A DNA stretch of 32,000 bases from contig OY282369.1 of assembly GCA_958295735.1 (NCBI GenBank), positions 2,084,983 to 2,116,982 of the forward strand. Reading direction: 5' to 3'. Shown here piece after piece: positions 6,125-29,532 of this stretch (position 1 is the first letter of the stretch; each line of letters opens with the position of its first letter). This DNA comes from an uncultured Candidatus Cenarchaeum sp. GTDB lineage: Archaea > Thermoproteota > Nitrososphaeria > Nitrososphaerales > Nitrosopumilaceae. Both the position numbers and the translations under genes were made by a program. The notes beneath the pieces are model-generated. The model ran no database searches. It saw only the letters and a list, made by a program, of their open reading frames with translations, and was not told the origin of the DNA.

Positions 6125-6985
6125 GTGGAGCGGGAGGCCGGGCGGCGGCAGCGGCGGCGGGGCGCCGCCTCCGGCCTCCCCCTCGCCGCCTCCGGCGCCG
6201 CCTCCATCGCGGCGCTGTTCGTCGTGTACTCTTGGCACCAGTCCCCCGAGCTGGCGACCCCCGAGGCCGTCGACGGCATGGTCCGCATGGCCGCCGCGTT
6301 CTATGCCGCGCTGGTCGCCTCCATGGGGGCCGTGGCCGCCGGCCTGCGCTCCCGGCACCGCGCGATGGCCCGCGGCCCCCCCGGAGCGGCGTGGGGCCTG
6401 GGGGCCGTGGCGGCGGCCACGTGGAACCGCAGGTCGTCCAGGATACTCGCCGCCGCGTTCGTCGGGTACGGCGCCCTGTTCTCCGTGACGTCGGGCGCGC
6501 TGGTGTACCAGCCGGACGTCAGCTTTTCCCGGCACTACGGGGTGGACGTCCCGTCGGCGGAGGCGATCCCGTGCTGCGGCGAGCCGGGCTACATGCCCAA
6601 GGTGCTCGTGTACGCGACGGACCATGTCGGGATCCAGATCGTCCCGGTGAACGTGGTCCTGCAGGCCGCGGTCTCGTACATGGTGGGCATCAACGCGGCG
6701 CTGGCGCTGGGCGGCGGCATCCCGGCGGGCGGCCGCGGCGCGGGCGGCGGGATAGGCGCGGCCGCCGGGCTGTTCGTCGCGTGCCCCACGTGCGCGGGCA
6801 CTGCCCTGTCGGTATTCGCGGGGGCCGCGGGGGGGATCGTGCTGGGGGCGGCCCTGGCGCAGATGCAGACCCTGCTCATGGCGGTGAGCATACCCGTGCT
6901 GCTCGCCGCCCCGCTGCTCGCCGCCCGCAGGCTCGGCCGCCGGCCCCCGGGGGCAGCCGCCTGCGCCGCGGGGAACGGCGCCTAG
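6125..6985 (+). CDS. Polytopic membrane protein with vicinal CC and intramembrane CPTC motifs (hypothetical)
   Basis: 286 aa with several hydrophobic helices, IPCCGEPGY in a loop and LFVACPTCAGTALSVF inside a helix. TATA spacing supports the start. No family assigned. Confidence 0.55.
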   Translation: MEREAGRRQRRRGAASGLPLAASGAASIAALFVVYSWHQSPELATPEAVDGMVRMAAAFYAALVASMGAVAAGLRSRHRAMARGPPGAAWGLGAVAAATWNRRSSRILAAAFVGYGALFSVTSGALVYQPDVSFSRHYGVDVPSAEAIPCCGEPGYMPKVLVYATDHVGIQIVPVNVVLQAAVSYMVGINAALALGGGIPAGGRGAGGGIGAAAGLFVACPTCAGTALSVFAGAAGGIVLGAALAQMQTLLMAVSIPVLLAAPLLAARRLGRRPPGAAACAAGNGA

Positions 6986-7215
6986 CGCGCCGGCATCGCC
7001 GGCCTCCGTCCCCGGGCGGAACGCCAGCCCGGATCGCGCGGGGGCGCCCGCCCGCCCGCCGGCGCCTCCCCCCGATCCCGATCCGCGCCGCGGGGCGGCG
7101 AGGCCACGCTCCCGGGATCCCGCGCGGGCGGGCCCGAACCGTGACCGCGGCAGGCCGCCCCAGGATCCCGCGCCCGGATCGCAATGGGCGCGATCCCGCG
7201 CCTTGGATCTTGGAT

Positions 7216-7241
7216 CCTGCATTATACACTTATAATGCAGG
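7216..7241 (+). promoter_or_regulatory. Palindromic TATA/operator region of the SBP gene
   Basis: cctgcattata-cact-tataatgcagg is a perfect 11-bp inverted repeat with a 4-nt centre. It ends 17 nt before the ATG at 7258. Confidence 0.6.
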
Positions 7242-7257
7242 CGGGCCGCAACGCCGC

Positions 7258-8676
7258 ATGCGGTTGCTGGAGAGGGGAGGCGCGGTCTTGGCCGCGGTTG
7301 CTGCTCTCGCCATGCTCGCCGCCCCGCTGTCTGCCGGCCCCGCCGACGCGCAGGATATGACGCTGACCGGCGTGGTTGCCGCCCCACCGGGGTGCGCCGA
7401 CGGGATGGAACGCATCATAAAGATCGCCGACATGTCAGAAGCGTGCGTAAAGCCGGCCACCAAGATTGTACTGATCGAGAGGGGATGGGGACAGGAACCG
7501 CCCATGATGGAGGATCCCATGTCCATGATGGAGGATCCCACTATGATGGAAGACCCGATGATGCCGCCGTCGATGCCGCCCCTTGACCTTACGGACGAGG
7601 AGACGGCGTGGCTGGATCAGGGCCAGACCCTGAGGGTGGCCTACGACCCGTACGGGCTTCCGCTGGAGTTCGTCGCCGACGGCATGCTCGGGGGGCTGTC
7701 CGTAGGGTACCACGATATGCTAAAGGTCGCCGTGCCAGTGCAGACCGAGCTCGTCCCGCTGGATAGCTGGGACGAGGCCCTGCAGGCGATGAGGGAGGGG
7801 AGGGCCGACATCATGTTCTCGGTAGTCGAAAACGAGCAGAGGCTCGAGTACATGGCGTTCACCGAGCCGCACACGGTGCTCACTTGGGACATGGTGACCG
7901 CCGACGAGCGAGCGGTGGATCCGTCCGACTTGGCCGGCATGGACGTGGGCATCGTGAGGGGCTACGAGATAGGGGACTGGCTGGACGCCAACATGCCGGA
8001 CGTGGAATATGCCGAGTACAATAACGCGATGGAGGCGATAACCGCACTCAGGTCTGGCGAGATCGAAGTGTACGTGGACACGTGGCCGGTCGCTTCCTAC
8101 GCGGCGCTCACCGCCGGCGACGGCCCACCCGTGCACAACGCCGGAAAGATAGGGCACGACATGGCGCTCTCCATAGGCTACGCAAAGGACAACGCAGTGC
8201 TCGGATCTATACTCATGAAGTTCTTGGACTCCGTTCCGGACGACCAGAAAGAGTTGTTGGCCATGACGTTAGCCAATCCGGTGGGCGCGCTCGCCAGCGA
8301 GGAGTTCATAGGTGCGGTGGGCGAGGCCGATCCGGCCGCGGGCGAGCTGCTGGAGGACCTTGTAGGGATGGCCGAGGAGATTAAATCGAACAACTCGGAG
8401 GATATGAACGCGTTACTGGCAGAACTCTTGGAGAGCCCCGAGTCTGTCGCCTTTGCGGAAAAGCACCCCGAATACGACGTGCGGACAGACAACCTTGGGT
8501 CATTCCAAGTGGAATTCAGGCTTTCCGCTACGGACGGCACCGGCACCCTCAGAATTGAATACGACAAGGAGTCCAGCACGCCCACGTACACCTACATGTG
8601 CGACCAGAACGACATGAGCGACGCCGCTGACGGCGAAGGACTGGCCGACAGGATACCAGGCCTGTGCGTGCCGTAG
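7258..8676 (+). CDS. Secreted family-3 solute-binding (SBP_bac_3/PBPb) domain protein with Met-rich N-terminal linker and extra C-terminal domain
   Basis: Signal-peptide-like MRLLERGGAVLAAVAALAMLAAPLSAGPADA, then PPMMEDPMSMMEDPTMMEDPMMPPSMPP. The PBPb-like core runs LRVAYDPYGLPLEF...GRADIMFSVVENEQRLEYMAFTEPH...VGIVRGYEIGDWL. The first 342 aa of track ORF 6232-8676 are rejected. Confidence 0.8.
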   Translation: MRLLERGGAVLAAVAALAMLAAPLSAGPADAQDMTLTGVVAAPPGCADGMERIIKIADMSEACVKPATKIVLIERGWGQEPPMMEDPMSMMEDPTMMEDPMMPPSMPPLDLTDEETAWLDQGQTLRVAYDPYGLPLEFVADGMLGGLSVGYHDMLKVAVPVQTELVPLDSWDEALQAMREGRADIMFSVVENEQRLEYMAFTEPHTVLTWDMVTADERAVDPSDLAGMDVGIVRGYEIGDWLDANMPDVEYAEYNNAMEAITALRSGEIEVYVDTWPVASYAALTAGDGPPVHNAGKIGHDMALSIGYAKDNAVLGSILMKFLDSVPDDQKELLAMTLANPVGALASEEFIGAVGEADPAAGELLEDLVGMAEEIKSNNSEDMNALLAELLESPESVAFAEKHPEYDVRTDNLGSFQVEFRLSATDGTGTLRIEYDKESSTPTYTYMCDQNDMSDAADGEGLADRIPGLCVP

Positions 8677-9952: not shown

Positions 9953-10083
9953 GGGGCTGGCCTCCGCGAACCGCCGCAGCGCCGCCAGGCGGCCCTCCCG
10001 GCCGCGCTCCCCGAGCGGGACCGCCTCGACCAGGCGCCCGCTGCCCGCCGCATCGGCGCGCAGCGCGCGCTGGATGGCTACCA

Positions 10084-10259
10084 GGCCTTCCGCGGCCGGG
10101 CGCGCCGGAACCCCGGCGCCATCGGCGTCCGCTTCGGCGCGGGGGCCAGCTACACGGCCTTCCGCGGCCGGGCGCGCCGGAACCCCGCCGCCGTCGGCGT
10201 CCGCTTCGGCGCGGGGGCCAGCTACCCGGCCTTCCGCGGTCAGGCGCGCCGGAACCCCC
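10084..10259. repeat. 72-bp tandem repeat, about 2.4 copies (degenerate extension back to ~10049)
   Basis: ggccttccgcggccgggcgcgccggaacccc... restarts at 10084, 10156 and 10228 with a few substitutions between copies. Confidence 0.85.
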
Positions 10260-10659
10260 TCTCGTACTGGCCGACGAACTCCTTCACGCTCATCAGCTCC
10301 CTCAGGCGGCCGTAGGCGGCCGCGTCCCGTTCCGGGGCCCCGGCCAGCCGGTCGGACTCGCCGTCCACCTCGGCTGCCAGGCGCGCCACGGCCTCCGCGT
10401 GGGGGCCCGCATCGAAGGCTGCCACGGCCTCGGCCGCCGCGCGGAGGGCGGCGCGCGCCTCCTCGCCCGCCGCCCCGCGCCCGAGGGCCGCCGCGCCGGC
10501 CCTGACTGAGATGGCCGCGTGGTACGCGCCGATCAGCCTCGCGGCCGCGGGCCTGCCTCCGGAAAGCTCCGCTACCTCGGCGGCCAGCCCGCGCGCTTCC
10601 TCGGCCAGCCCGCGCGCCCCGGCCCCCCGCACCCCTGCGGGCCCCCCGCTACGCTTCAC
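10240..10659 (-). CDS. Ala-rich helical hypothetical protein
   Basis: 139 aa. The GTG start overlaps the aquaporin stop by 11 nt. Codons are G-first (gcg/gcc/gag/gtg) and the C-terminus is protein-like (YGRLRELMSVKEFVGQYERGF). It could still be a GC artefact. Confidence 0.4.
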   Translation of the reverse strand: MKRSGGPAGVRGAGARGLAEEARGLAAEVAELSGGRPAAARLIGAYHAAISVRAGAAALGRGAAGEEARAALRAAAEAVAAFDAGPHAEAVARLAAEVDGESDRLAGAPERDAAAYGRLRELMSVKEFVGQYERGFRRA

Positions 10660-12045: not shown

Positions 12046-13263
12046 CTAGAAGCCCTTCGGCATGGTGCCCCTCGAGGGCTTTCGCGCGCTGCCCTCGGCC
12101 TCGGCGCGCTTTTTGGCCGCCAGCTCGGCCGCGGCTGCCGCGACCTCCGCTGCCCTCTTGGCATCGGCGTCCAGCCTGGCGAGGTACTCTTTTTCGTACG
12201 ACTCGAGCGACCCCGCGCCGGACTGCGGCGGCGGGGGCGGAGCCTGCTGCTGCTCCTGCCTGGGCGGCGGGGGCGGCGGCGGCGGCGCCTGCTGCCTTGC
12301 CTGCGCCTTGGCCTCCGCCCCGACGCCGGCTACCGCGTAGCCGTACCCGTCAAAGTTCTTCTCCGCGGGGTGGTAGGCGAGCCTCTGCCTGGTCGCAAAG
12401 TAGTTGTTCGACGCGGCCGTGTACCCGGTGACCTTCTCCTTCTGCAGGTTCCAGTCGGACAGGGGGGTCGTGCCCCTCTTTGCGTGGAGCCTCTCGTAGT
12501 ACCTGTTGGGGGAGGGCGAGTAGCCGGGCGTCTTGGCCTTGTAGTCGAACGGGTTGCTCATCGCGGCATCCCTGTAGATGGCCTCGAGCGCCTGGGCGTT
12601 GTTGGCGGGCGGCGCGGCCGACACCGTGTCGGGCTTGGGCGCCGGCTTGGACTCCTGCTTTGCCTTTGCCCCCTTCGGAAGCGTCCCGTGCGGAGACGGG
12701 GGCTTTTCCTCCTTGGGCTCGGCCTTCGGGGGCGGGGGCGGCGGAGCCGCCTTCGTTCCCTTCGGAAGCGTCCCGTGCGGAGACGGGGGCTTTTCCTCCT
12801 TGGGCTCGGCCTTCGGGGGCGGGGGCGGCGGAGCCGCCTTCGTTCCCTTCGGAAGCGTCCCGTGCGGAGACGGGGGCTTTTCCTCCTTGGGCTCGGCCTT
12901 CGGGGGCGGGGGCGGCGGAGCCGCCTTCGTTCCCTTCGGAAGCGTCCCGTGCGGAGACGGGGGCTTTTCCTCCTTGGGCTCGGCCTTCGGGGGCGGGGGC
13001 GGCGGAGCCGCCTTCGTTCCCTTCGGAAGCGTCCCGTGCGGAGACGGGGGCTTTTCCTCCTTGGGCTCGGCCTTCGGGGGCGGGGGCGGCGGAGCCGCCT
13101 TCGTTCCCTTCGGAAGCGTCCCGTGCGGAGACGGGGGCTTTTCCTCGGGCGCCGGCTGGGCCTCGGGCTTCATGCTGATGTTGGCTGACAGCGTCTCGAG
13201 CTTTTTCTCGAGATATGCTATCTTGTCTTCAAGTTCCTTCTTTGTCGGCTTTGACTTAGCCAT
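12046..13263 (-). CDS. Coiled-coil / polyproline tandem-repeat protein (hypothetical)
   Basis: 405 aa. N-terminus MAKSKPTKKELEDKIAYLEKKLETL, then 5.5 copies of the 29-aa unit KPPSPHGTLPKGTKAAPPPPPPKAEPKEE. The C-terminal region has P8 and P5 tracts and ends in a motif echo, KPSRGTMPKGF. A TATA lies 29 nt upstream. Confidence 0.8.
   Translation of the reverse strand: MAKSKPTKKELEDKIAYLEKKLETLSANISMKPEAQPAPEEKPPSPHGTLPKGTKAAPPPPPPKAEPKEEKPPSPHGTLPKGTKAAPPPPPPKAEPKEEKPPSPHGTLPKGTKAAPPPPPPKAEPKEEKPPSPHGTLPKGTKAAPPPPPPKAEPKEEKPPSPHGTLPKGTKAAPPPPPPKAEPKEEKPPSPHGTLPKGAKAKQESKPAPKPDTVSAAPPANNAQALEAIYRDAAMSNPFDYKAKTPGYSPSPNRYYERLHAKRGTTPLSDWNLQKEKVTGYTAASNNYFATRQRLAYHPAEKNFDGYGYAVAGVGAEAKAQARQQAPPPPPPPPRQEQQQAPPPPPQSGAGSLESYEKEYLARLDADAKRAAEVAAAAAELAAKKRAEAEGSARKPSRGTMPKGF
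12671..13146. repeat. 87-bp tandem repeat, about 5.5 nucleotide-perfect copies (in-frame within 12046-13263)
   Basis: ttcggaagcgtcccgtgcgg recurs at 12674, 12761, 12848, 12935, 13022 and 13109. By eye there are no substitutions between copies. Confidence 0.95.
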
Positions 13264-13300: not shown

Positions 13301-13542
13301 GTTGGCCGCGGGTATGGGGTCGCGTGCCCGTCAGTCACAGGCGTGAGAACGCCTTCCTGATCCGGATTCGCGCCCGCGGAGCGGGGGTTGCTGACCTCGT
13401 AAGGCCGCGGGCGCGGGTCCGCGGGCCCGCCGGCCACGGGCGCGAAAACGGCCTCGCCGGTCCGGATCCGCGCCAGCGGCGGGGGCGCCGCCGGCCCCGT
13501 GCGGCCGCGGCGCGCCCGCGGCCCGGCCGCCGCCGGCTGCGC

Positions 13543-13560
13543 GGGGGGGGGGGGGGGGGG
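13543..13560 (+). repeat. G18 homopolymer
   Basis: 18 consecutive G between ctgcgc and aggcgaag. Confidence 0.95.
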
Positions 13561-13716
13561 AGGCGAAGCCTTCCGGATCGGCCGGCATGCCCGCGCCGCA
13601 TCGCCGAGGCGTGCCGGCGCATCGGCCGCCGGCGCGGGGACGCCCCTGCCTGTCCGGGCCGGCGCCCTGCGGAGGGGGCGGCCGGCGGCCCCGCCCCGCC
13701 CGCGCCGGGGCCGCGC

Positions 13717-13908
13717 CTAGTCGGGTTCCCAGAACGTCGCTACGTACAGGCAGTTGTTGCACCTCCAGACCTTGACATGCACGCCGTTGTATGTGTCCAC
13801 CCGGTACGAGCCGTCGGCGCGCTTTTTTAACCTCGGGAGGTAGTGGATGTGCGGGTTCCCGAGCCACTCGTTCTGCCCGCAGTTGGGGCAGGCGTCGGCG
13901 GGAGGCAT
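13717..13908 (-). CDS. Small zinc-ribbon protein (hypothetical)
   Basis: The last 63 aa of track ORF 13717-14094 read MPPADACPNCGQNEWLGNPHIHYLPRLKKRADGSYRVDTYNGVHVKVWRCNNCLYVATFWEPD, with CPxC...CxxC knuckles. The N-terminal part of the track ORF is Arg/Ala/Pro junk. Confidence 0.55.
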   Translation of the reverse strand: MPPADACPNCGQNEWLGNPHIHYLPRLKKRADGSYRVDTYNGVHVKVWRCNNCLYVATFWEPD

Positions 13909-14819
13909 GGCGGGCCCCGCCGCGCTGCCCAAAAGTACCTTTCTGTCTGCGCGCCCGCCGGCGCGCGGGGCGGACGCCCGGCAAGCGCGGCAGGGGACGC
14001 GCCGCGCCGGCCGCGGCGCGCGGCAGCAGGGTGGGCGCCGCGCGAGAGGCCGCGCATCCGCAAGCTGGCCGCATGCGCGAAGATCCTCCCACAACCGAAT
14101 TTGCGCCTGGCCGGGAAGGGCGGTTGCCGGCTTCGGCAGCCGCGGCCGCCTGGCCGTCCGTAACGGGCCCTGCCGAATGCGCTAGGGCAGTACCCGTGGC
14201 GGAAATGCGGATGCATTTCGGGAGAAAATCGCCCACGCCCGAGGCGCCGAAAACCGACGCCCGGAACCAACCCGCCCACATTCCTTCGTGGCCGCGTTCC
14301 GCCTATCCCGGCAACGCGGGGACAGCACTCCTCGATCTTGGCGCGACGATCGAGGCGCGCCGCGATCCCAAGCTGCCCGCAAAACGCCGGCGCTCCGTCT
14401 GGCTGGACAAGCGCGACGCCGTTCGTTCCAAGGCCGAAAACACCACGAAAGTGTCCGGAATGCCGAAGGCGCATGCCGGCGAGATGCCTCCGGGCTGGCT
14501 GGGGCCGCCGGCTGCGGGGTTCCGGGCAGCTGGTTCCTGCACCCCGCTTGCGCTCAGAAGCATGCCGTGCGACTTGCGCCTTTTCGCGCGGGGGAGCGTG
14601 GGCAACGCGGGGAGGCGAGCTTCCGGCTCGGACAAGCCGGCGGATCTTCTGGCTGCGAAAGGAGCTGGGTTCCGGGCGGCGGCGGCACGCACCAGCCATC
14701 GGCGCGGTGCCTCCGCGCGCCCGCTCGGGGCAATCCGCTCCGCCCCGATTCTGGTGGGGGGATGCGCCCGCCTGTCCGGGCGCCCGCGCGCCCCGCCCCC
14801 GCGCCCGCCCCGCCGGGGC

Positions 14820-14930
14820 GGCCGGCAGCCCCCGCCCCGCGGGCGCGAACCCGGACCGGCAAAAGCTCCCCCGGCCGCGGCCGGCGGGCGCGCGGCCCCG
14901 TGCCGGGGGCCCCTGCGCAAATTTAATAGG
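14820..14930 (+). repeat. Promoter-bearing GC-rich repeat, left arm (copy X)
   Basis: Shares ggccggcagc, ccccgccccgcgggcgcg, acccggaccggc and ggcgcgcggccccg, in the same order and ending at a TATA box, with the reverse complement of 15601-15700. Confidence 0.75.
14919..14928 (+). promoter_or_regulatory. TATA box for 14946 gene
   Basis: aaatttaata is centred ~23 nt upstream of the ATG at 14946. Confidence 0.55.
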
Positions 14931-14945
14931 CAAGGCGTGCGGGGC

Positions 14946-15326
14946 ATGCCCGTGGACGACTTTGAGCGGGACTATCCCGACTTTGACTGGCGGAACACGC
15001 CGGCCTACAAGCACCCCGGGGGAAAGGACTGCCCGTGCCCCAAGCACGAGTACGTGCGGGAGCAGATCAACTACACGAAGCAGGTGAACGCGGGCGGCAA
15101 GGACAAGGCGAGCGTGACCCTCCGGTTCTGCCCCGACCACTACCGCGTGTACGTGGACGAGGTGGTCCCGTCGATGCCCTTCAAGTACCGCATGTTCACC
15201 AAGATAGCCCTCCGCGTGGGGGCCATCCGCGTGGTGCGGCTGGGGCACATGCAGTCGGACATCTGCTTTTACTGCAAGTTCGGCTCCGGCGGCTACGGCA
15301 AGAAGACCGAGCTCCCCCCGGTGTAG
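14946..15326 (+). CDS. Cys/His-rich hypothetical protein (126 aa)
   Basis: The last 126 aa of track ORF 13791-15326 read MPVDDFERDYPDFDWRNTPAYKHPGGKDCPCPKHEYVREQINYTK...RFCPDHYRVYVDE...SDICFYCKFGSGGYGKK. Composition is protein-like, unlike the upstream part of the ORF. Confidence 0.65.
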   Translation: MPVDDFERDYPDFDWRNTPAYKHPGGKDCPCPKHEYVREQINYTKQVNAGGKDKASVTLRFCPDHYRVYVDEVVPSMPFKYRMFTKIALRVGAIRVVRLGHMQSDICFYCKFGSGGYGKKTELPPV

Positions 15327-15336
15327 GGCCGCGCCG

Positions 15337-15576
15337 TCAGGCGGGCCCGACCAGGATCTTGGGCCTGTTGGGCGTGTCGTGGTGGCACTTTTTCCCGCAC
15401 AGGGGGCAGACCTTCCTGTCCAGCAGCACGCACTGGCAGATGTGGGACTCGAGGTAGGCGCTGGCCGCCCTGCTGGACTCGCCGGTCCCGTTGCAGAACG
15501 GGCAGCCGGAGCCGAGCAGCCGTATCGTGCCGCTCCCGCCGCACACGGCGCAGCGGCCGCCCCCCGAGCCCTCCAC
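15337..15576 (-). CDS. Small DnaJ-type zinc-finger protein (CxxCxGxG x2 plus extra Cys/His cluster)
   Basis: 79 aa from the GTG at 15576: (M)EGSGGGRCAVCGGSGTIRLLGSGCPFCNGTGESS...HICQCVLLDRKVCPLCGKKCHH. A TATA lies ~30 nt upstream. The rest of track ORF 15337-16314 is rejected. Confidence 0.65.
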   Translation of the reverse strand: MEGSGGGRCAVCGGSGTIRLLGSGCPFCNGTGESSRAASAYLESHICQCVLLDRKVCPLCGKKCHHDTPNRPKILVGPA

Positions 15577-15600
15577 GGGCGCGCGGGCGGCGGGCGCCGG

Positions 15601-15700
15601 TAAAAATATTTGGTCTGCGCCGCGGGCGCGGGGCCGCGCGCCTGCCAGGCGCTTCCGCCGGTCCGGGTCCGCGCCCGCGGGGCGGGGGCCGCTGCCGGCC
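15601..15700 (-). repeat. Promoter-bearing GC-rich repeat, right arm (copy Y); includes TATA aatattttta (15601-15610)
   Basis: Inverted counterpart of 14820-14930 (see that feature). The TATA is the innermost part of the arm. Confidence 0.75.
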
Positions 15701-16612
15701 CCGCGCGTCCCGCGCCCAGGAAAGGGACGTGCGGCCAAAGGCGGGCGCGCCGTGCGGGCGCATCGCGCCGGCCGGGAGGCGAAACGGCCGCGGGATCGAG
15801 CGCGGCGCCCGCCCGCCAAAAGATCCCGCACCCGGCCGCGATCGCGCGGCGCGGGGGGCGGCCGCGGCGGTCGGGGGAAACGCCCGCGGATCCGCGCCGG
15901 AGGGGCTCGGGCCCCCTCCCCGCGGATCGCGGGTACCGCGGCCCGTGCGGCGGGCGGCGCGGGAGAGTTCCCCATGCCCGCCGGGACGGCGGCGGGCATC
16001 AAAAAGGCCCGGGCGGATCGCGGGCGCGGGGGGCGGGAAAGGGCGCCCGCGCGCGGGCGGCGCCGGGGGCGGGACTGTACGCCTTCCGGCCGGCCGCCGG
16101 AAAGCGCGCGCCGGACAGGCGGCGGGCGGGCGCGGCGGCACCCCGCGTCCGCCGCCGGCGCCGCGCAGGGCGCGATCGGGCGGGCCGCGCAGGGCGTGCC
16201 GGACGCGCACGGGCGGCGCCGGGGGGCGGGGAACGCCCGCGGGCCGATCAAGGGGATCCCGACGGCGGGCGGCGGGAGCCGGCCGATCGGGACGATCGCG
16301 GCGCGCCTTTCCACGATCTGCCGCAGCGTACGGCGCGCGCCCGGCCGCGCCGCCGATGCGGATGCGGAGGAACCGAGGGCCGGGCCGCACGGAAGCGCGT
16401 GCCGCCGTGCGTGCCCGTTGTGTTGATGGCCGGATTTGCGTCGGGGCCTCCGGGACGGGCACGGACAGGCGGGGCTGCCGCCTCCGGCACGCTTTCAACT
16501 CCCGATGCATTCGAGCCTGCGCCCGCTGCCGCCTCCGGCGCGCCCGCGCCGCCGTCGCTGAACGGCGGGGTCTTTTTCCCGCGCCCGATCCCCCAGTTGA
16601 ACGGGGGCAGCG

Positions 16613-16710
16613 GGCGGCCGAACCGCCTCGGCGCCAGCCCTGCCAAGCTCGGGATCGAGGGCGGGCGGGCGGCCGAGTAGCAGGCGGCCGAACCGCCTCG
16701 GCGCCAGCCC
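16613..16710. repeat. Perfect 28-bp direct repeat pair (16613-16640 and 16683-16710)
   Basis: ggcggccgaaccgcctcggcgccagccc occurs twice, 70 bp apart. Confidence 0.85.
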
Positions 16711-16951
16711 GGTGCGGTACTTGGCGCTGCGGGTTTGCCCCGACGGCGTCCAGCATCCCTGGCGCGCGCATGGGCCCGGGATCGCCGCGCGCGGGCCTTT
16801 TTCGGGCGGCGGGCGGCTTCGAGCCCGCTCGGCTTCCAGTTCTGCCTACGGCCGCCCGTTCCTGTCCCGGAGTGCGGCCGCCTGCCGCCCGATCGAGTCC
16901 GGCACGCCGCGGTGCCGCGCGCCGGGGACTTGCCTGTTGCCCTGGCCAGCT

Positions 16952-18946
16952 TCATCCGGACGGCGAACCGCCCGCCGCCCCCATTGCCCGCCCGTCCTCG
17001 TCCGTTATGCTCGTAATCAGCTTGCATGCCCTTGATGCCTTTTCTTCCCCGTCGACATACTCCCGATACGCCGCTTGCGCGCTGTGGATGAGCTCGTCGT
17101 ACATGACGATCCGCGCGGAGTAGGCTTCCAGCACATTTTCCGACCGTGTTCGCCCGCCGACATTGCCCCAGTCCTCCACGTCCCTTCCCAGCACGCAGAC
17201 GAATTCCACCGGCTCGTTCCCTTTTCCCGACCTTGCAAGGACGGACCTCACGCCCTCGCCGTATTCCAAAATCTGCCCCAGCAGTTCGACCGTCGATGCC
17301 ACGGCGCCCGGCCGCTTCAGTTCTATTATGACGTGCTTGCCGCCGGCGGCCCTGTATTTTATGCCCAGTCTGGACTTTTTTTGATCCGGCGCGAGCCCGT
17401 CATAGACGTTATCTAGCGCCTTCATGATGCTTTTTTCCATGGATTTGGTCGGCGCGGCCCGATCCCAGGAAGGATCCAGCAGCCAAAGGTGATCTAAAAG
17501 GCACTCTTGTATGGCCCTTTCCCTGGCGTTTTGATCCGTCAGTTTGAAAAGTGCGTCAATCGCCCCGAGCCGGGTTTTGGCCGTCTGGTAATACGCGCCG
17601 GCCTCAAGATCACCAAGCCGCGATAATGCCCTGGTCAGCGACGGGAGATCATCCGCGCTGATTTTTTCCAGCCTGTTCAGCACGCCTTTTAATTCGAGGC
17701 TTTCGAACGCCAGTATCCCGCTGACAAAGGCGCGCCTTTTTTCGTCCTCGTCATCAATCGGCAGCGCGTGGATCCTGCCGAACAGTTTTTGGGCCGCGTG
17801 CCCGCGATCCGGCGACAGCCCGTCGAACCATCCCCTGATCTGCGGTATCTTCAGTGCGGCCTTTTCCCCGTCCAGGCCGCGCAGACTGGTCCACCTGTCT
17901 CCCACGTGCCTGAGTATTTTCCTGACCGACTCCAGCAGTGCCCGGTATTCTGGAGAATCCTCCATGATCTGCTGCCCGTTGGTGGTGGCGACGTCACTCC
18001 CGTCACCGCGATCCAAAAAATCCGCGTATACCTCGCCCACGACATACCTGTTGTATGCGCCCGCATTCTCCAGCCCCCCGAGGATGTCTTCCTGTGCCAT
18101 CTTGCCGCGGATCATGACGGTGATCCTGTTGATGCTCTCTTCGGCGTCGTGATCTTTCAGCTGCCCTGCTTTTTTCACGGTCCCGATCCACCCGTCCAGT
18201 CTCGCGGTCCGGCCGCCCCATTCCGCCACGGGATCGCAGCCGAGATCCTGGATCCCGCCCGCGCCGGATATGGCGCCCCTGCCCTTCTCCCCCAGCCCCC
18301 ACGCGTATTCCAGGTTTTTATAATAACCCGTATCCTGTTTGGTGACGTCTTCCCCGTTCACCCTCACGCTGAAATTGCCGCCGTTTCTGACCACGCTGAA
18401 TCTGCGTGCCAGCCCCCTTTTCAGGACGGCGGGCCTCCCCACGCGCTTGAGCGAGGACAAGACTATGCGGGTTCCGGGTTTCAGATCTCTGGTCACCTTG
18501 ACGGGTTTCGGGTTGTACGCCCCGTCGGGCTTTTGGGCGGCTTTCCTGATATCGTTCGCATCCATGACGAACCCGTGCGGCTCGCCGTTACCCGCGCTGG
18601 TGATCTCCACGGCGTCGGCTATTGAAAACAACGAAAGTTTGCCTATTCCCCTGCGTCCCATGACGGGCCTTCCAAATTTGGCGGTGACGTCACCCTCCTT
18701 CCTCCGTTCATACCCCACATTGAGATACTTGTCGTTCGCGTCACGGACGGTCATTCCGCTCCCGTCGTCCCGGATCACGACCCGGTTTTCGCTTATGTCT
18801 ATTGACACTACCGTCGCGTCCGCATCCCACGCGTTGGCCACCGCTTCTGACAGAACGGCCGTAATGCTGCTGTGCAGGCCTATCCCCAGGTGCTTGAGCG
18901 CGCTGAGGCTTACCCTTGCGGTGTATGTGGGTTCATCCGCCATCAT
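16952..18946 (-). CDS. GHKL (HATPase_c_3, MutL/MORC/Hsp90-type) ATPase with C-terminal PD-(D/E)xK/DUF4263-like module
   Basis: 664 aa. ATP-binding motifs EAVANAWDA, IRDDGSGM and GRRGIGKLS appear in canonical order. The C-terminal part reads ECLLDHLWLLDPSWD...SRLGIKYRAAGGKHVIIELKRPG. A GC sample is 52%, against 83-90% in the flanks. Confidence 0.85.
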   Translation of the reverse strand: MMADEPTYTARVSLSALKHLGIGLHSSITAVLSEAVANAWDADATVVSIDISENRVVIRDDGSGMTVRDANDKYLNVGYERRKEGDVTAKFGRPVMGRRGIGKLSLFSIADAVEITSAGNGEPHGFVMDANDIRKAAQKPDGAYNPKPVKVTRDLKPGTRIVLSSLKRVGRPAVLKRGLARRFSVVRNGGNFSVRVNGEDVTKQDTGYYKNLEYAWGLGEKGRGAISGAGGIQDLGCDPVAEWGGRTARLDGWIGTVKKAGQLKDHDAEESINRITVMIRGKMAQEDILGGLENAGAYNRYVVGEVYADFLDRGDGSDVATTNGQQIMEDSPEYRALLESVRKILRHVGDRWTSLRGLDGEKAALKIPQIRGWFDGLSPDRGHAAQKLFGRIHALPIDDEDEKRRAFVSGILAFESLELKGVLNRLEKISADDLPSLTRALSRLGDLEAGAYYQTAKTRLGAIDALFKLTDQNARERAIQECLLDHLWLLDPSWDRAAPTKSMEKSIMKALDNVYDGLAPDQKKSRLGIKYRAAGGKHVIIELKRPGAVASTVELLGQILEYGEGVRSVLARSGKGNEPVEFVCVLGRDVEDWGNVGGRTRSENVLEAYSARIVMYDELIHSAQAAYREYVDGEEKASRACKLITSITDEDGRAMGAAGGSPSG

Positions 18947-19402
18947 GATCCCCCGCGCGTGCGGTTGTGCATCTTCCTGCCTCTTCCCCCAAAAGAACCG
19001 GAGCGCCGTTGCCTATAAACCCGGCAGTCCGCGGTTCGCATTGCGCAGTCCCAAAAGCGGCGGCCTCTTCCTGCACGCGCGCCCGTCCGGGCCGGACGAC
19101 GGAGGCGGGCCGAATGGGTGATCCGCGGGGCGGAAATGAAAGCGGGGGGGAGTCGGCCTTTGTCCCGATCCAAAGCGGCGGGCCGGAGCCGTGGGGCAGA
19201 ACCGGGGCCGCGTCGGGCGGATAGCCCGCCGGAAGCGCGGGGGCGGGATGGCGATCGCGCGGGTGGCGGACCATGAAGGTCCCGGCGTCCGTGGCCGGGA
19301 GGCCGCGGCTGGGATGCGGGGGCCGCGGCGGGAGGGGGGCAAGCGCGCGCCCGCCGCGGCGCCGGCGGCCCTCCGCCCGCGGCCGGCGCGCGCCCGCCGC
19401 CC

Positions 19403-19490
19403 GTGTAGGCTTACGTCCATCGTGATCCGGGCGTGAGATCATGGGGTGGCTTGCCGTTGCTAGGCGTGGTTCCGGTTTGGACGCAAGTCT
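19403..19490 (-). repeat. 88-nt conserved element, copy B
   Basis: The reverse complement aligns to 11406-11493 (73/88). Fourteen of the 15 differences are transitions in which copy A carries G/C and copy B carries A/T. Confidence 0.75.
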
Positions 19491-19510
19491 ACGCCGCCGC
19501 CCCCCCACTA

Positions 19511-19520
19511 GGCTTATACC
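19511..19520. promoter_or_regulatory. TATA box (ggcttatacc) between element copy B and the ubiD-family gene
   Basis: Its centre is ~26 nt from the GTG at 19542 and ~25 nt from the element's first base at 19490. Confidence 0.55.
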
Positions 19521-19541
19521 CCCGCCCGGCCCGGCGCGTTC

Positions 19542-22160: not shown

Positions 22161-22185
22161 TTGGGCGGCCTTCCCCTCCCAGCTT

Positions 22186-22197
22186 CGTATTTAATCC
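22186..22197 (-). promoter_or_regulatory. TATA box for mqnC/E-like gene
   Basis: Minus strand reads ggattaaatacg, centred ~31 nt upstream of the TTG at 22160. Confidence 0.5.
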
Positions 22198-22492
22198 TTA
22201 ACGGGCGGCCGGCCCGCCTCGCAGCCGCGCCCGCGGCGGCCGCGGCGGGGCGGTTTTTCGCGCCCAAAATCCCGGTTGCGGGGTGGGCTGCGGGCGGCCG
22301 CGGGGAGCCGCCCCCGCCCGCTGCCGCGCGACGCGCCTCCGACGCGGGGCGGGCCCCCCGCCCCTGCCGGGATCCGCGCCCCGCGCCGCGCGGGGCCGCG
22401 CGCCCGCCGGCCGCGGGCGCGAAAACGCTTCTGCTGATCCAGGTTCGCGACTGCGGGGCGCGGGTTGCCGGCCCCGCGCCCCGCGCCGCACG

Positions 22493-22505
22493 CTATTTTT
22501 AAGTA
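22493..22505 (+). promoter_or_regulatory. TATA box for shikimate operon (aroA')
   Basis: ctatttttaagta is centred 28 nt upstream of the ATG at 22527. Confidence 0.6.
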
Positions 22506-22526
22506 GGGCGCGGCGGCACTCGGCGC

Positions 22527-26247: not shown

Positions 26248-27129
26248 ATGGAAGGGGCGGCCACCGCCCGCGTGCACGGGGCCGTGTCGCTGGTCAACGC
26301 GCTGGCCGCGGGCCGCGGGGCCACCGTCGGGGTAGCCTCGACGGTGGAGGCCGACGTGCGCGCCTCGCCGGGGAGCGGCATCACCGTGCGCTCGGAGAAC
26401 CGCAGCCTGAGCTCGCGCCTCGTGGCGCTGACCGTCCAGAAGATGGCGCCGGCGCGCGCGCTGGCCCGCACCGCGGTGCGGGTGGAACTGCGGTCGGAGA
26501 TCCCGACCGGCTTCGGCCTGAAAAGCTCCAGCGCCATATCGTCGGTGGTGGCGCTGGCCTGCGCGCGCGCGTTCGGCGATGCGGGGGGCGGGAAGGAAAA
26601 GGGGGCGGCGGCCGACTCGAGGGTGCTCGCGGCCGGGGTGGATGCCTCCATCGAGACGGGAGTCAGCGTGACCGGCGCGTACGACGACGCCTGCGCCTGC
26701 TACTACGGGGGGATCGCCGTCACCGACAACGGCAGGAGGCGGCTGGTCGCCTCGGCCAGGGCCCCCCGCAACCTGGCGGCGGCCATATTCGTGCCGCGGT
26801 CGAGGCGGCGCGGCCGCGCCGCCGATCTGCGCCTGCTGCGCCCCGTGTTCGAGAGGGCCTGGGCCCTGGCCAGAGAGGGCCACTACTGGGACGCGATGAC
26901 CGTGAACGGCCTGGCCGCCGCGCCCATGCTGGGCCCCGACCCCCGCGTGCTGGCCGACCTCGTGGGGGCGGGGGCGCTGGGCGCCTCGGTGTCCGGGAAC
27001 GGGCCGGCCGTGGCAGCGGTGGCCAGGCGCGGCGACATGCCGGAAGTGGAGAAAGTGCTCTCGCGGCTGGACGGGCGCACCGTCGTCGCCGCCCTCAACA
27101 ACGAGAGGGCGCGGGTAGCGGACATGTGA
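26248..27129 (+). CDS. aroK: Archaeal shikimate kinase (GHMP-kinase family)
   Basis: GHMP motif EIPTGFGLKSSSA; position directly after aroE; 293 aa, as for MJ1440-type kinases. Confidence 0.8.
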   Translation: MEGAATARVHGAVSLVNALAAGRGATVGVASTVEADVRASPGSGITVRSENRSLSSRLVALTVQKMAPARALARTAVRVELRSEIPTGFGLKSSSAISSVVALACARAFGDAGGGKEKGAAADSRVLAAGVDASIETGVSVTGAYDDACACYYGGIAVTDNGRRRLVASARAPRNLAAAIFVPRSRRRGRAADLRLLRPVFERAWALAREGHYWDAMTVNGLAAAPMLGPDPRVLADLVGAGALGASVSGNGPAVAAVARRGDMPEVEKVLSRLDGRTVVAALNNERARVADM

Positions 27130-27639
27130 CCCGGCGCCCCCCCGGGGCGCGGGCGGGGATATCGCGCGGGCGCGGGGCGGGCCGGGGGCGCGGCCGGTCC
27201 CGCGAGCGCGGGAACCCGCGGCGGGGAGCGCCCGCAGCGCGCCCGGGGGATCCCGCGAGGGCCGCCCGCGGTTCGGCGCGCGCGCCCCGATCCTCCGGCC
27301 GGATGCGCGGCTTGGCGCCGGCCGGGGCCGCCGGCGCCGCGCCCCCGCGGGCACCTGACCGGCCCGCTCCCGCATTCGGAGGCACGCCGCGCGGCGCCGG
27401 ACTGGCACCGGGCGGGGGGGCCCCGGGGCCGGGACTAAGATGCGGGGCAAGCCGCTTCGAAAGCGCGGTAACTCGCGCGGCCCTGTATTTTGCGGGGCCG
27501 CCGCGGGATGCGCGGCGGATCCTCCCAAGCGCGGGCTCCGCTGGTTGGCGGCGGGCCGAGCCGAAACGAACCGCCCGCGCCCGTCGCGATTTCGGCCGCC
27601 GGCGGTCGGCTCGCCGCCACCTGGCCCGTTCTCTGCAGC

Positions 27640-28237
27640 CTAGTCCCGCTTGACCTTCATGATCGGGTTTGCGTCGACGGCGTACGCCGGTTCGCCGTCC
27701 GGCGTGAAGAACTCCGTCTTGTTGATCTGGCCCGCCACGGCCTTTATGCTCACCACCATGCCGTTGCTACTATCATAGACGCTGAAATCCTCGCTGAGCG
27801 GTTCGCAATCCACGTCAAAGTCCGTTGTTCCGGATGCCACGTTGTCCTGCCGGCCCACTTTGAAATCCTGCGGCCGGCGGTTCTCCTTCGGCACGTACGC
27901 GCTGATATGGACCGAGTAGCTGATCGTAAAGCCGTCGGGCGAATCCGGAGCCGGAACCACGTGGTTTGCCACGAACAAAACGCGGATTGTGGTTCCGGCG
28001 CCGTCGTTTACCCTGTAGTAGCTCGGGCGTATCAGTCTCGGCGTGCACGTTGCGTAACCCATGCCCTCGATGCCTTTGGCGATCTCCGCCTCGGGAGTCA
28101 TTCTTCCGCCCCACAGCATGTTCCGTAATCTTGCTCGTGCCGTCTCTCTTCCCGTGCAAAACGACCACCGTGGGGTTCCTAAACATCCCGTCGACGCGGA
28201 TCACGAGCTGCTTGCACGGCTTGAGGATGATCGGCAT
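27640..28237 (-). pseudogene. Hypothetical protein split by a 1-nt frameshift at a C4/G4 run (28109-28112)
   Basis: The frame from ATG 28237 reads MPIILKPCKQLVIRVDGMFRNPTVVVLHGKRDGTSKITEHAVG and then turns into Arg/Gly junk. The neighbouring frame becomes protein-like at ...GGRMTPEAEIAKGIEGMGYATC... and runs to 27640. Deleting one G joins them into about 198 aa. Confidence 0.5.
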
Positions 28238-28291
28238 CTGGTCCTTGGTTTTGCACGCGGCTTTTATGGGGCCTACCCCCCGCTGATCTCT

Positions 28292-28672
28292 CTAGCCATC
28301 GTCCGCGGGATCGAGCTCAAGCAGCTCCACCTTGTCGCCGCTCTTTCGCAAAGCGTACTTTCTGCCATTCCATTCTACAGGGTAAATCTTGTTTTCGACC
28401 ATTTTTGCCGAATAGTAGGATATCTGCTCTACTCCGTCGACGTTAGTCACGCTGACGGGCGCGGGGACGTTTACGGCAGACGTGCTGGCTGGCGTGTGGG
28501 TCGGCGCGCTGACTGGCCGCGGATCGCAGATTCCATCCTCTCCGTCAATCCGCACCCTGCAAACCGGGTTCTGCGTGGACTGCCCCGTGGCCGCCCGGAA
28601 CCTTTTCCGGTCCTGCTCCTCCCACGTCGGCTTGGCCAAGGACATGCAGGACCCCGCATTCTTCCCTACCAT
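28292..28672 (-). CDS. Hypothetical protein (126 aa; alternative start at M10)
   Basis: The C-terminal half is protein-like (VDGVEQISYYSAKMVENKIYPVEWNGRKYALRKSGDKVELLELD). Composition is AT-shifted like the downstream gene. No family recognised. Confidence 0.5.
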   Translation of the reverse strand: MVGKNAGSCMSLAKPTWEEQDRKRFRAATGQSTQNPVCRVRIDGEDGICDPRPVSAPTHTPASTSAVNVPAPVSVTNVDGVEQISYYSAKMVENKIYPVEWNGRKYALRKSGDKVELLELDPADDG

Positions 28673-28729
28673 AAAGGCACGAAGTCACCACTATTTCACC
28701 CGCGTGTCAACAAAACCTGATCGCGCGGT

Positions 28730-28807
28730 TGCCGCGCGTCCGGGGATGCCGCGCGTCCGGGGTTGCCGCGCGTCCGGGGATGCCGCGCGTCCGGGGTTGC
28801 CGCGCGG
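28730..28807. repeat. 17-bp tandem repeat, about 4.6 copies (tgccgcgcgtccgggg[a/t], alternating, i.e. 34 bp x 2.3)
   Basis: Units are 28730-28746, 28747-28763, 28764-28780, 28781-28797 and a partial 28798-28807. The array lies 58-135 nt upstream of the ATG at 28672. Confidence 0.9.
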
Positions 28808-29532
28808 CACGGGCCGGCCCGCGGCAAACCGGAAATCGGGGGAGGCGCCGGATGCGCCTGCCCGCGTCCCCGGGGCACGGGGCGGAGCCTGCCGGCAATC
28901 GCGGGGCGCGCCCCGCGCCGCGCCGCAGCGCCGCGCCGGACGGGCGGACGGACCTGGCGGCCCGGGGCCGCGCGGGATCGCCGCCGGGCCGGCATCCGCC
29001 GCCCTCCGCCGCCCGAGCCGATCCAGCAGCCGGCCCGCCGCGTGCGCGACGGGCAGCCAGAACGCGGCGCTGCGCGCTGCCAGCATGATGTGCGGGACGG
29101 GCCGGGGCGGGCGGAACGCGCCGTTGGGGATCGGCGAGGCCGGGATCACCGGCGCGTTGCTGCGCGCGACCGGCATCGGGCACTGGTTGTGCTGGTTCGG
29201 GGCAGCCTCGGCCCCGACGAGTCCCACGATGCCGCAGATCGGAAGCGGGGCGTACGGCAGGATCCGCGCGCGCTGCATGGCGGGAAGGGGCCGCGGAGCC
29301 CCGGCCTCGGGCGGGAATCCGCCGGCATCCGGCCCCTCCACCGCGCGCTCCGGGGCGCCGCCCGCACGTGTCGCATCGCCGGGAGCCCCCGCGGGCGCCC
29401 GTCCCCGGGCGGGGCCCGATCCCGGCGCCCGCCGATGCCGGCAGCGCCGCCGGCGCGGGGGCGGGGCCGCGCGCGCCAGGAAAGGCCGGCGGGGGCGGGC
29501 GGCCCCGCGGCCGATCCGGGCGCCCCCCCTGT

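Follow-up and report, generated by a model that had tools for sequence, protein, structure and literature searches.

A probably disabled, orphaned restriction endonuclease gene of the BbrUII/HgiDII family in a sponge-symbiont thaumarchaeon

A 664-aa open reading frame (ORF) in the 32,000-nt stretch of archaeal DNA analysed here (the window) encodes a member of the known BbrUII/HgiDII restriction-enzyme family and is not an unknown module. With its partner methylase gone and one of its key catalytic residues replaced, the gene is most probably a disabled relic of a restriction-modification (R-M) system and not a new single-gene defence. We assign a probability of about 0.6 to the reading that it is a catalytically crippled, orphaned restriction gene, left behind by an R-M system after horizontal acquisition. 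A false annotation lead, that of a novel single-gene defence, is thereby removed. The coordinates of the features are summarized in Table 1.

Table 1. Features of the restriction endonuclease (REase) locus in the window, with the insertion found in one strain.
Feature	Position	Strand	Basis and remarks
REase ORF, 664 aa, intact	16952..18946	-	ORF listing; BbrUII/HgiDII-family restriction endonuclease homologue
GHKL (Bergerat-fold) ATPase domain, residues ~8-200	18347..18925	-	Pfam, invariant columns, Foldseek
Middle domain (Hsp90/MORC/MutL-like transducer) and long helical linker, residues ~201-470	17537..18346	-	Secondary structure of the model, Foldseek
C-terminal PD-(D/E)xK nuclease domain, probably Shedu-type (DUF4263), residues ~471-640	17027..17536	-	Model, Foldseek, profiles of relatives
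Codon 528 (GGC, Gly), where the family encodes the catalytic Asp of motif II	17363..17365	-	Codon comparison; GAC in L003 and L004
Remnant of the cognate m5C methyltransferase (MTase), final ~31 codons with motif X (IGNGAPVLLGE)	18939..19031	-	tblastn, translation, alignment
TTTATA element, a possible TATA box of archaeal type serving the REase gene	19014..19019	-	Within the MTase remnant, 68-73 nt 5' of the ATG
Foreign block, 2,052 bp	16980..19031	-	blastn, 80-83% DNA identity to the R-M loci L002 and L003
Downstream non-coding spacer, 1.35 kb, 80% GC	15601..16951	.	No codon periodicity; absent from the relatives L095 and L097
Upstream non-coding spacer, MTase remnant to UbiD, 0.5 kb, 76% GC	19032..19541	.	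No codon periodicity
GTCGAC, reported recognition site of the family, inside the gene	17051..17056	.	One of 10 in the window
IS630-like (DDE_3) insertion in strain L086, 1.3 kb, TA duplication	17100..17101	.	blastn of L086 against the window, junction sequences

The ORF reported by the first-pass annotation was confirmed by the ORF listing and lies on the minus strand. In a profile search, the window protein scored 656.2 bits (cutoff, 550) against the NCBIfam equivalog model NF050001, “BbrUII/HgiDII family restriction enzyme”, and the alignment ran end to end, with residues 8–646 of the protein corresponding to positions 1–658 of the 659 positions of the model. PADLOC called the window protein REase_II (E = 7e-87) as its sole match and did not call Shedu. 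The earlier description of the gene as a novel lone single-gene defence module is not supported by this equivalog-level match to a named Type II REase family, the members of which are normally paired with an adjacent m5C MTase. Furthermore, the architecture of the family, in which a GHKL domain, an Hsp90/MORC-like middle domain, and a Shedu-type PD-(D/E)xK domain are combined, has already been published. A sequence search found no solved structure for any BbrUII/HgiDII family member.

The N-terminal domain matched Pfam HATPase_c_3 at residues 29–152 (E = 2e-16), and Pfam revealed neither a HisKA nor a TM domain in the window protein, in agreement with the earlier view that it is not a sensor kinase. 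The ATP-binding residues E34, N38, D60, G62, G64, G97, G100, G102, and K103 are present and are invariant in all 55 family members compared; all GHKL ATP-binding motifs are thus intact. The motifs that had been quoted from the sequence, namely EAVANAWDA (E34/N38), IRDDGSGM (58–65), GRRGIGKLS (97–105), G528, and E542-L-K544, were located at the residues given for them, and every quoted motif residue except G528 sits on an invariant column of the family. Foldseek searches using the full model matched TRAP1, GRP94, MORC3, and MutL-NTD with E values down to 4e-12, which bears out the assignment of the N-terminus to the MutL/MORC/Hsp90 type of GHKL domain. The alignments spanned 400–470 columns to the N and M domains of TRAP1, to MORC3, and to MutL-NTD.

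The C-terminus had also been recognised, probably correctly, as a DUF4263/Shedu-type PD-(D/E)xK domain. Its model (pLDDT 84) has the topology alpha-beta-beta-alpha-beta-alpha-beta-alpha, and the best PDB match was the Shedu nuclease domain 8ti9, with a modest similarity (Foldseek probability, 0.99; E = 7e-3; TM about 0.42). PF14082 SduA_C matched 40 of the 55 family members (best E = 3.6e-6) and PDDEXK_4 matched 29 of them. Unlike most of these relatives, the window protein gave no match reaching E = 0.1 to either profile. The results provide structural and profile support for placing the long C-terminal domain of R.HgiDII-type enzymes, hitherto “unassigned”, in the Shedu/DUF4263 PD-(D/E)xK type with the motifs E-D-ExK-QxxxY.

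In the window protein, motif I was assigned to E504, motif III to E542-x-K544, and motif IV to Q558xxxY562, and the residues E504, E542, K544, Q558, and Y562 are all present. Motif II falls on G528, where the family residue is Asp, and the nuclease active site is therefore incomplete; the suspicion raised by the first-pass annotation that this position might be degenerate was justified. Asp occupies motif II in 53 of 55, 79 of 80, and 116 of 120 relatives in three samplings of the family. Gly was found at this position only in the window strains and in P0002 among the relatives compared, and the one relative with Gly528 is likewise without its methylase. The motif II Asp (D249) is a critical catalytic residue in Shedu nucleases (Gu et al. 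2023).

A full m5C MTase is encoded directly upstream, on the same strand, at about 66 of 80 family loci, and Vsr is found nearby at about a quarter of the 80; about 10 have no recognisable adjacent MTase. An intact MTase gene overlaps the REase gene at the loci L003 (71% identical) and L005. At the window locus, the MTase is represented by a remnant that overlaps the REase start and is matched by residues 320–350 of the L003 MTase (61% identity, E = 1.6e-7, tblastn). The earlier statement that the gene has no partner overlooked this 31-codon remnant directly upstream. No MTase was found elsewhere in the 32 kb by Pfam analysis of the 20 called genes or by a search of all six reading frames for m5C and N6/N4 motifs, and tblastn searches using five MTases and one Vsr from related loci detected the remnant only. 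The window locus does not encode an MTase with the endonuclease, as a complete Type II R-M system does. The remnant proves that the gene is derived from an M-R operon, and the gene stands alone only because its MTase was deleted. The remnant also contains a TTTATA element, missed when the gene was described as having no TATA box near its start. This putative element may possibly serve the REase gene, and the region is conserved as TTATAGG in L002–L004.

The cognate methylase was lost at nearly the same point in three of four closely related loci. The upstream junction sequence is common to L002 and L004; that of the window differs and is GC-rich, so a single deletion may or may not underlie all of the ΔM loci. 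L004 is also without the MTase yet retains Asp528, which indicates that Gly528 is not required to tolerate MTase loss, and we rejected D528G as a necessary price of losing the methylase.

The gene and the remnant span 2.05 kb with about 60% GC, and the homology to L002 and L003 extends from 85 bp ahead of the ATG to a point 28 bp short of the stop codon. In the related sponge-symbiont Thaumarchaeota L095, L096, and L097, neither is present at the syntenic site, which is empty. The gene and the remnant are thus an insertion relative to related genomes and document R-M traffic into sponge-symbiont Thaumarchaeota. The presence/absence check across relatives suggested by the first-pass annotation accordingly showed a gene of foreign composition that is absent from the syntenic site and not universally conserved. 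The compositional shift noted earlier was reproduced: the gene has 59.6% GC and a GC3 of 0.73, compared with a GC3 of 0.91–0.95 in the flanking housekeeping genes. The values given for its surroundings required correction, because the flanks measured 76–80% GC (83–90% had been claimed) and the neighbouring coding sequences 67–72% (about 62% had been claimed). Both flanks had rightly been described as ORF-less. We rejected the idea that the two GC-rich spacers derive from a common repeat or mobile element; the only repeats found in them were short, local, and in tandem. The host is a Cenarchaeum/Nitrosopumilaceae-like thaumarchaeon whose UbiD shares 71% identity with the C. symbiosum A protein, so an ammonia-oxidising archaeal lineage is a reasonable context.

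At least four strain copies retain an intact REase ORF. In the co-occurring strain L086, the insertion truncates the REase at codon ~616 and gives a product of 620 aa, and strain L088 carries a 1,685-bp IS in the upstream spacer at about 19120. Between the window and L001, the REase gene showed 5 nonsynonymous and 2 synonymous differences, compared with 5 nonsynonymous and 23 synonymous ones in the neighbouring core metabolic genes (Fisher p = 0.012), a contrast that was not significant when the fast-evolving SBP gene was included (p = 0.23). The pairwise omega was 0.11–0.35 for pairs containing a G528 copy and 0.08 for L003–L004. Both G528 copies have GGC at this codon and carry E495D. At a dS of 0.44–0.68 between them, omega is 0.31 overall and falls to 0.18 for the nuclease domain, a sign that purifying selection went on once the substitution had arisen, and a plain pseudogene is not supported in view of the intact ORFs and these omega values. 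In the C-terminal domain, the G528 copies cluster together (dN 0.12, versus 0.22–0.25 to L003), a mosaic pattern which suggests that the G528-bearing module may have been exchanged by recombination.

An orthologous MTase, followed by an array of three tandem paralogous nucleases, is encoded ~30–40 kb away, outside the window, on the same contigs as the window locus. This array MTase shares 62% identity with the cognate MTase of L003 and 59% with that of L005, and the nuclease paralogues are diverging (omega about 0.7). Since an orthologous methylase is encoded at this distance, protection in trans may be possible. We rejected the short ORFs that follow these nucleases as partner genes because they are Arg/Pro/Ala-rich translations of GC-rich spacer DNA. 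A pattern search showed no avoidance of GTCGAC in the window (10 observed, 10.5 expected). This non-avoidance fits methylation protection as well as inactivity and is uninformative about activity.

From the features described above, we infer a loss of cleavage activity in the window protein and the following order of events. An M-R operon would have entered a sponge-symbiont thaumarchaeon by horizontal transfer, and the m5C MTase would later have been deleted except for its last ~31 codons. The endonuclease carries the Asp528-to-Gly substitution at the metal-binding Asp of motif II. In the present state, DNA would no longer be restricted, and the orphan would be tolerated without its own methylase while drifting towards loss. 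The intact ORFs, the intact GHKL domain and motifs I, III, and IV, and the purifying selection on the G528 copies count against a crippled orphan, as do the retention of Asp528 without an MTase in L004 and the protection that the array MTase could provide in trans.

A rather unlikely alternative is that the G528 allele has been repurposed as a non-cleaving protein selected for ATP-dependent DNA binding or clamping, for example as a site-specific GHKL factor or as a subunit modulating the paralogous nucleases of the array. The codon and E495D change common to the G528 copies, their clustering and low omega in the C-terminal domain, the suggested recombinational exchange of this module, and the fully conserved GHKL motifs would all be consistent with such a role. 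However, only two lineages carry G528, their omega of about 0.3 is 3–4 times the L003–L004 baseline, and no conserved new partner gene was found. The IS disruption in one strain and the nonsynonymous bias of the within-species polymorphism also argue against selection for a new function.

The REase is unlikely to be still active, with its own methylase made redundant and lost because the other HgiDII-type m5C methylase, that of the array, methylates the same sites and protects the chromosome in trans. Such protection would fit the identity of the array MTase to the cognate MTases, its location on the same contigs, the intact ORF with an omega below 1, and, equally, the unavoided GTCGAC sites; L004, with Asp528 and no adjacent MTase, shows that ΔM-R+ arrangements persist in the population. 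Cleavage by the window protein is nevertheless difficult to reconcile with Gly in place of a near-invariant Asp that is a key catalytic residue of Shedu-type nucleases, with a C-terminus that escapes the profiles detecting most relatives, and with the IS and the nonsynonymous excess in the gene.

We also find it improbable that the HgiDII-type GHKL nucleases of the sponge-symbiont population follow a “one methylase, many nucleases” mode in which the window gene is a selected non-canonical member and not junk. The idea is based on the three ΔM loci among four, the single array methylase with its three paralogues, and the persistence of G528 in two lineages; if it is true, the window protein would cleave through a remodelled site or bind DNA in an ATP-dependent manner without cleaving it. 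That the gene is a self-sufficient GHKL-Shedu defence which senses infection and cuts invading DNA without a methylase, as first proposed, is very unlikely: GHKL-fused DUF4263 proteins do occur among Shedu homologues (Gu et al. 2023), the gene is alone and compositionally foreign, and some family loci are similarly without a recognisable MTase, but its equivalog-level membership in a characterised Type II REase family, its origin in an M-R operon, the lost catalytic Asp, and the PADLOC result all contradict it.

As a probably disabled R-M leftover, the locus illustrates a rare course of R-M decay, with the methylase gone and the nuclease ORF surviving it. A single metagenome provides a natural series comprising an intact M-R locus, ΔM loci with Asp or with Gly, and an IS-disrupted copy. 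The G528 protein, if functional, would be a natural separation-of-function variant for probing the role of the GHKL ATPase in a Type II enzyme.

The closest known systems are R.HgiDII and R.BbrUII (Type IIP; paired with M.HgiDII and M.BbrUII), which belong to the same family as the window gene over the full length. M.HgiDII recognises GTCGAC (PMC5867850). The window protein has the same GHKL N-terminus, which was noted for R.HgiDII (Orlowski & Bujnicki 2008), and an ancestral linkage to an upstream PF00145 methylase is common to both. In contrast to these systems, the window locus has a methylase of 31 codons, Gly in place of the motif II Asp, and an archaeal host. In regards to Shedu (SduA, DUF4263/PF14082), an architecture of HATPase_c_3, an Hsp90-like middle domain, and DUF4263 has been described for the Type 1D homologues (Gu et al. 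2023), and the C-terminal fold of the window protein is closest to Shedu, with the modest match given above. Unlike a stand-alone Shedu sensor, members of the BbrUII/HgiDII family share an operon with a methylase and act like classical R-M nucleases; the window copy is, moreover, without the motif II Asp and is not a stand-alone single-protein system. In paraMORC3, a GHKL and S5-like module is joined to a C-terminal domain of the RE fold that bears E-D-ExK motifs, and the neighbourhoods include cytosine methylases and Vsr, with a stand-alone subset that is mostly proteobacterial or from Bacteroidetes (Iyer, Abhiman & Aravind 2008). At the family level, BbrUII/HgiDII matches this published description in architecture and neighbourhood features and is a candidate member of paraMORC3.

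The window locus also resembles degenerate or orphaned R-M systems, in which one methylase is lost when another of similar type is resident: of its two components one has been deleted and the other has a substitution in its active site, and the locus is IS-ridden and polymorphic. R-M decay usually leaves behind an orphan methylase whose nuclease is dead or lost, whereas the survivor at the window locus is the nuclease ORF.

The gene at 16952-18946 (-), which the first-pass annotation proposed as a candidate lone GHKL-DUF4263/Shedu-like defence module, is a real 664-aa ORF, and each motif quoted for it was found at its reported residue. It belongs to a known restriction-enzyme family: the product matched the NCBIfam equivalog model NF050001 ("BbrUII/HgiDII family restriction enzyme") over its full length with 656 bits (cutoff 550), and also the PADLOC REase_II model (E = 7e-87). 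This family gave >4,800 matches at E ≤ 1e-10, many of them full-length and ~50% identical, from many bacterial phyla and some archaea, with many members from sponge-symbiont MAGs. R.HgiDII consists of an N-terminal GHKL domain and an unassigned C-terminal domain (Orlowski & Bujnicki 2008), and M.HgiDII is an m5C methylase with the target GTCGAC. M.BbrUII is treated inconsistently in PMC5829577 and PMC5867850, as an N6-adenine methylase in one and as a 5mC M.HgiDII homologue in the other.

Pfam detected only the GHKL domain in the window protein (HATPase_c_3, residues 29-152, E = 2e-16); no match to SduA_C (PF14082) or PDDEXK_4 reached E = 0.1. Among the 55 family sequences aligned, these two domains were found in 40/55 and 29/55, respectively. 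The AlphaFold2 model of the full protein, calculated from this alignment, had a mean pLDDT of 80, and its N-terminal two-thirds matched Hsp90/TRAP1/GRP94, MORC2/3/4, and the MutL N-terminal domain (E down to 4e-12; target-based TM up to 0.56). A separate model of the C-terminal 197 residues (pLDDT 84, core >90) gave an alpha-beta-beta-alpha-beta-alpha-beta-alpha topology, for which the top PDB match was the B. cereus Shedu nuclease domain 8ti9 (probability 0.99, E = 7e-3, TM ~0.42) and the second was an XisH PD-(D/E)xK protein. Family-invariant residues mark motif I (E504), motif II (D528), motif III (E542-x-K544), and motif IV (Q558xxxY562). These fold matches, the Pfam matches of the relatives, and the invariant motifs indicate that the first-pass domain reading, a GHKL N-terminus with a probable Shedu-type nuclease C-terminus, was right.

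Position 528 is Asp in 53/55 aligned relatives, 79/80 genome loci, and 116/120 retrieved proteins. Among the relatives compared, Gly528 was confined to the window, its strain variants, and one related protein (P0002, 77% identical). All Gly528 copies share the codon GGC and the substitution E495D; the codon is GAC in the related R-M loci L003 and L004. Because the motif II Asp of Shedu (D249) is the critical catalytic residue, the positioning of which turns the enzyme on, D528G is predicted to abolish or severely reduce cleavage by the window protein.

A full-length PF00145-type m5C methylase gene lies immediately upstream on the same strand in ~66 of the 80 family loci from named genomes, often overlapping the nuclease start, and a Vsr gene is nearby in about a quarter of the 80. 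No methylase gene was found across the 32 kb of the window. The 93 bp directly upstream of and overlapping the nuclease ATG (19031-18939) encodes RTAGFIGNGAPVLLGEEAGRCTTARAGDHDG. This peptide spans m5C motif X and aligns at 61% identity with the C-terminal 31 residues of the cognate methylase, which is intact in L003 (E = 1.6e-7). The DNA homology shared with L002 and L003 (80-83%) begins 85 bp upstream of the ATG and ends 28 bp short of the stop, which limits the foreign block to the short segment listed in the table. The window nuclease is orphaned through deletion of its methylase, and its motif II Asp is substituted.

The closest relatives of the gene all came from a single metagenome (sample ERZ19489113), in which they make up a natural series; they are summarized in the table. 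L002 and L004 share an upstream junction; that of the window differs. The nuclease gene is mosaic: the N-terminal and middle parts of L002 group with those of L003, and its nuclease domain groups with that of the window. In the strain copy L086, a 1.3-kb element inserted at window position ~17100 cuts the protein short at codon ~616. The L002 and L003 loci lie within low-GC (45-58%) defence islands (L002:7363-21974 and L003:1-21977), which also carry GHKL proteins of 711 and 728 aa, a further GHKL fragment of 233 aa, DDE transposases, and a DISARM-like cluster (m5C MTase, 1135-aa helicase, MZB/DUF1998, PLD, and DEAD helicase).

Features of the window, its strain copies (L001, L086-L088), and related loci
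Feature	Location	Size or identity to window	Methylase	Residue 528	Remark
Foreign block	16980-19031	2,052 bp			DNA homology limits vs L002, L003
L003		71%	Intact M overlapping R	Asp	Adjoins DISARM-like cluster
L004		64%	~34 codons remain	Asp	
L002		77%	~37 codons remain	Gly	Vsr immediately downstream
L087		100% across 9.4 kb	As window	Gly	
L001		99.1%	As window	Gly	
L086		Same locus	As window	Gly	IS630-like insertion
L088		Same locus	As window	Gly	1.7-kb IS, upstream spacer
Methylase + nuclease array	L090:370-10106				Contig s2438.ptg002820l; variants L089, L093
Small ORFs, second low-GC island	27640-28119 (-), 28292-28672 (-)	159 aa, 126 aa			
Tandem repeat	10065-10280	72-bp unit, 3 copies			GC-rich region
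Tandem repeat	28724-28823	17-bp unit, ~4-5 copies			GC-rich region
GC-rich non-coding spacers	2000-2660, 6900-7250, 13500-14900, 15601-16951, 19032-19541, 22161-22526, 27000-27600, 28750-29350				

The host is a Cenarchaeum/Nitrosopumilaceae-like thaumarchaeon. Three related genomes, whose UbiD is 74-77% identical, keep the order MIP-AhpC-...-128-aa gene-87-aa gene-UbiD-MqnC. In them, the orthologue of the 87-aa gene lies only ~80 bp from UbiD, versus 3.9 kb in the window, and tblastn found no nuclease trace. The window nuclease gene is thus lineage-specific, and its absence from the relatives, a comparison raised at first pass, argues against a conserved housekeeping role. The gene forms a compositional trough (59.6% GC; GC3 0.73 versus 0.91-0.95 in neighbouring housekeeping genes). 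Its flanks (15601-16951 and 19032-19541) lack codon periodicity, and their GC content of 76-80% is somewhat less extreme than was estimated at first pass.

Similar spacers (0.3-1.5 kb, 76-85% GC, without codon periodicity) lie between most genes of the window. Their GC content exceeds that of coding DNA, and they do not represent a single repeated sequence. In the related genomes L095 and L097 (~65% GC), the same sites are compact, e.g., with ~80 bp upstream of UbiD. The genes at 14940-15326 (+) and 15337-15600 (-), both small, Cys-rich (zinc-ribbon-like), and without a family match, are conserved next to UbiD in L095 and L097 (70-75% identity). An 87-bp tandem repeat (12575-13233; ~6 copies, with 99% identity among the central four) lies inside ORF 12046-13263 (-), which has no family match, encodes 405 aa (402 aa in L001), and has orthologues in L095 and L097. 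A second low-GC island (27600-28700; 56-62% GC, ORF GC3 0.75-0.79), whose two small ORFs had no Pfam or NCBIfam matches, may be another foreign insertion. The SBP_bac_3 gene at 7300-8676 (+) differs between the window and L001 by ~20 nonsynonymous and ~12 synonymous changes, and its aligned part is only 97% identical versus >99% elsewhere, which suggests diversifying selection or recombination.

The pairwise dN/dS between the window and L002 was 0.31 overall and 0.18 in the nuclease domain, and that of the remaining G528-copy pairs within the window/L002/L003 group was 0.32-0.35. The G528 copies of this group gave 0.11-0.13 against L004, with dS saturated, and L003-L004 gave 0.08. Between the window and L001, the nuclease carried 5 nonsynonymous and 2 synonymous differences versus 5 and 23 in core metabolic neighbours (Fisher p = 0.012; p = 0.23 with the fast-evolving solute-binding protein gene counted in). 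These values indicate that constraint on the nuclease is relaxed, yet not absent. We favour the reading that the gene is a catalytically crippled relic (probability ~0.6). A repurposed, non-cleaving protein is unlikely.

Approximately 30-40 kb off, outside the window on the same contigs, an array comprises one 434-aa m5C methylase gene and, after it, three family paralogues of 657 aa, which recur every 3,132 bp as units of nuclease plus GC-rich spacer. The paralogues share 48-51% identity with the window protein, keep Asp528, and have pairwise omega values of 0.65-0.73. In other strains, an IS66 element disrupts the array of L089, and L093 has a 490-aa methylase-GHKL fusion ORF. The array methylase is 62% identical to that of L003, so protection in trans is possible and could account for the loss of the window's own methylase without cell death. 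A window enzyme still active under such protection is nevertheless unlikely, given the predicted effect of D528G. The stand-alone defence module of the first-pass annotation is very improbable for this orphaned member of a restriction-enzyme family.

The GHKL + nuclease architecture of the window protein has been described previously. It is already listed among Shedu homologues (Gu et al. 2023), and at family level it is in essence that described for paraMORC3, which combines a GHKL+S5 module and an RE-fold domain and is associated with cytosine methylases and Vsr (Iyer et al. 2008).
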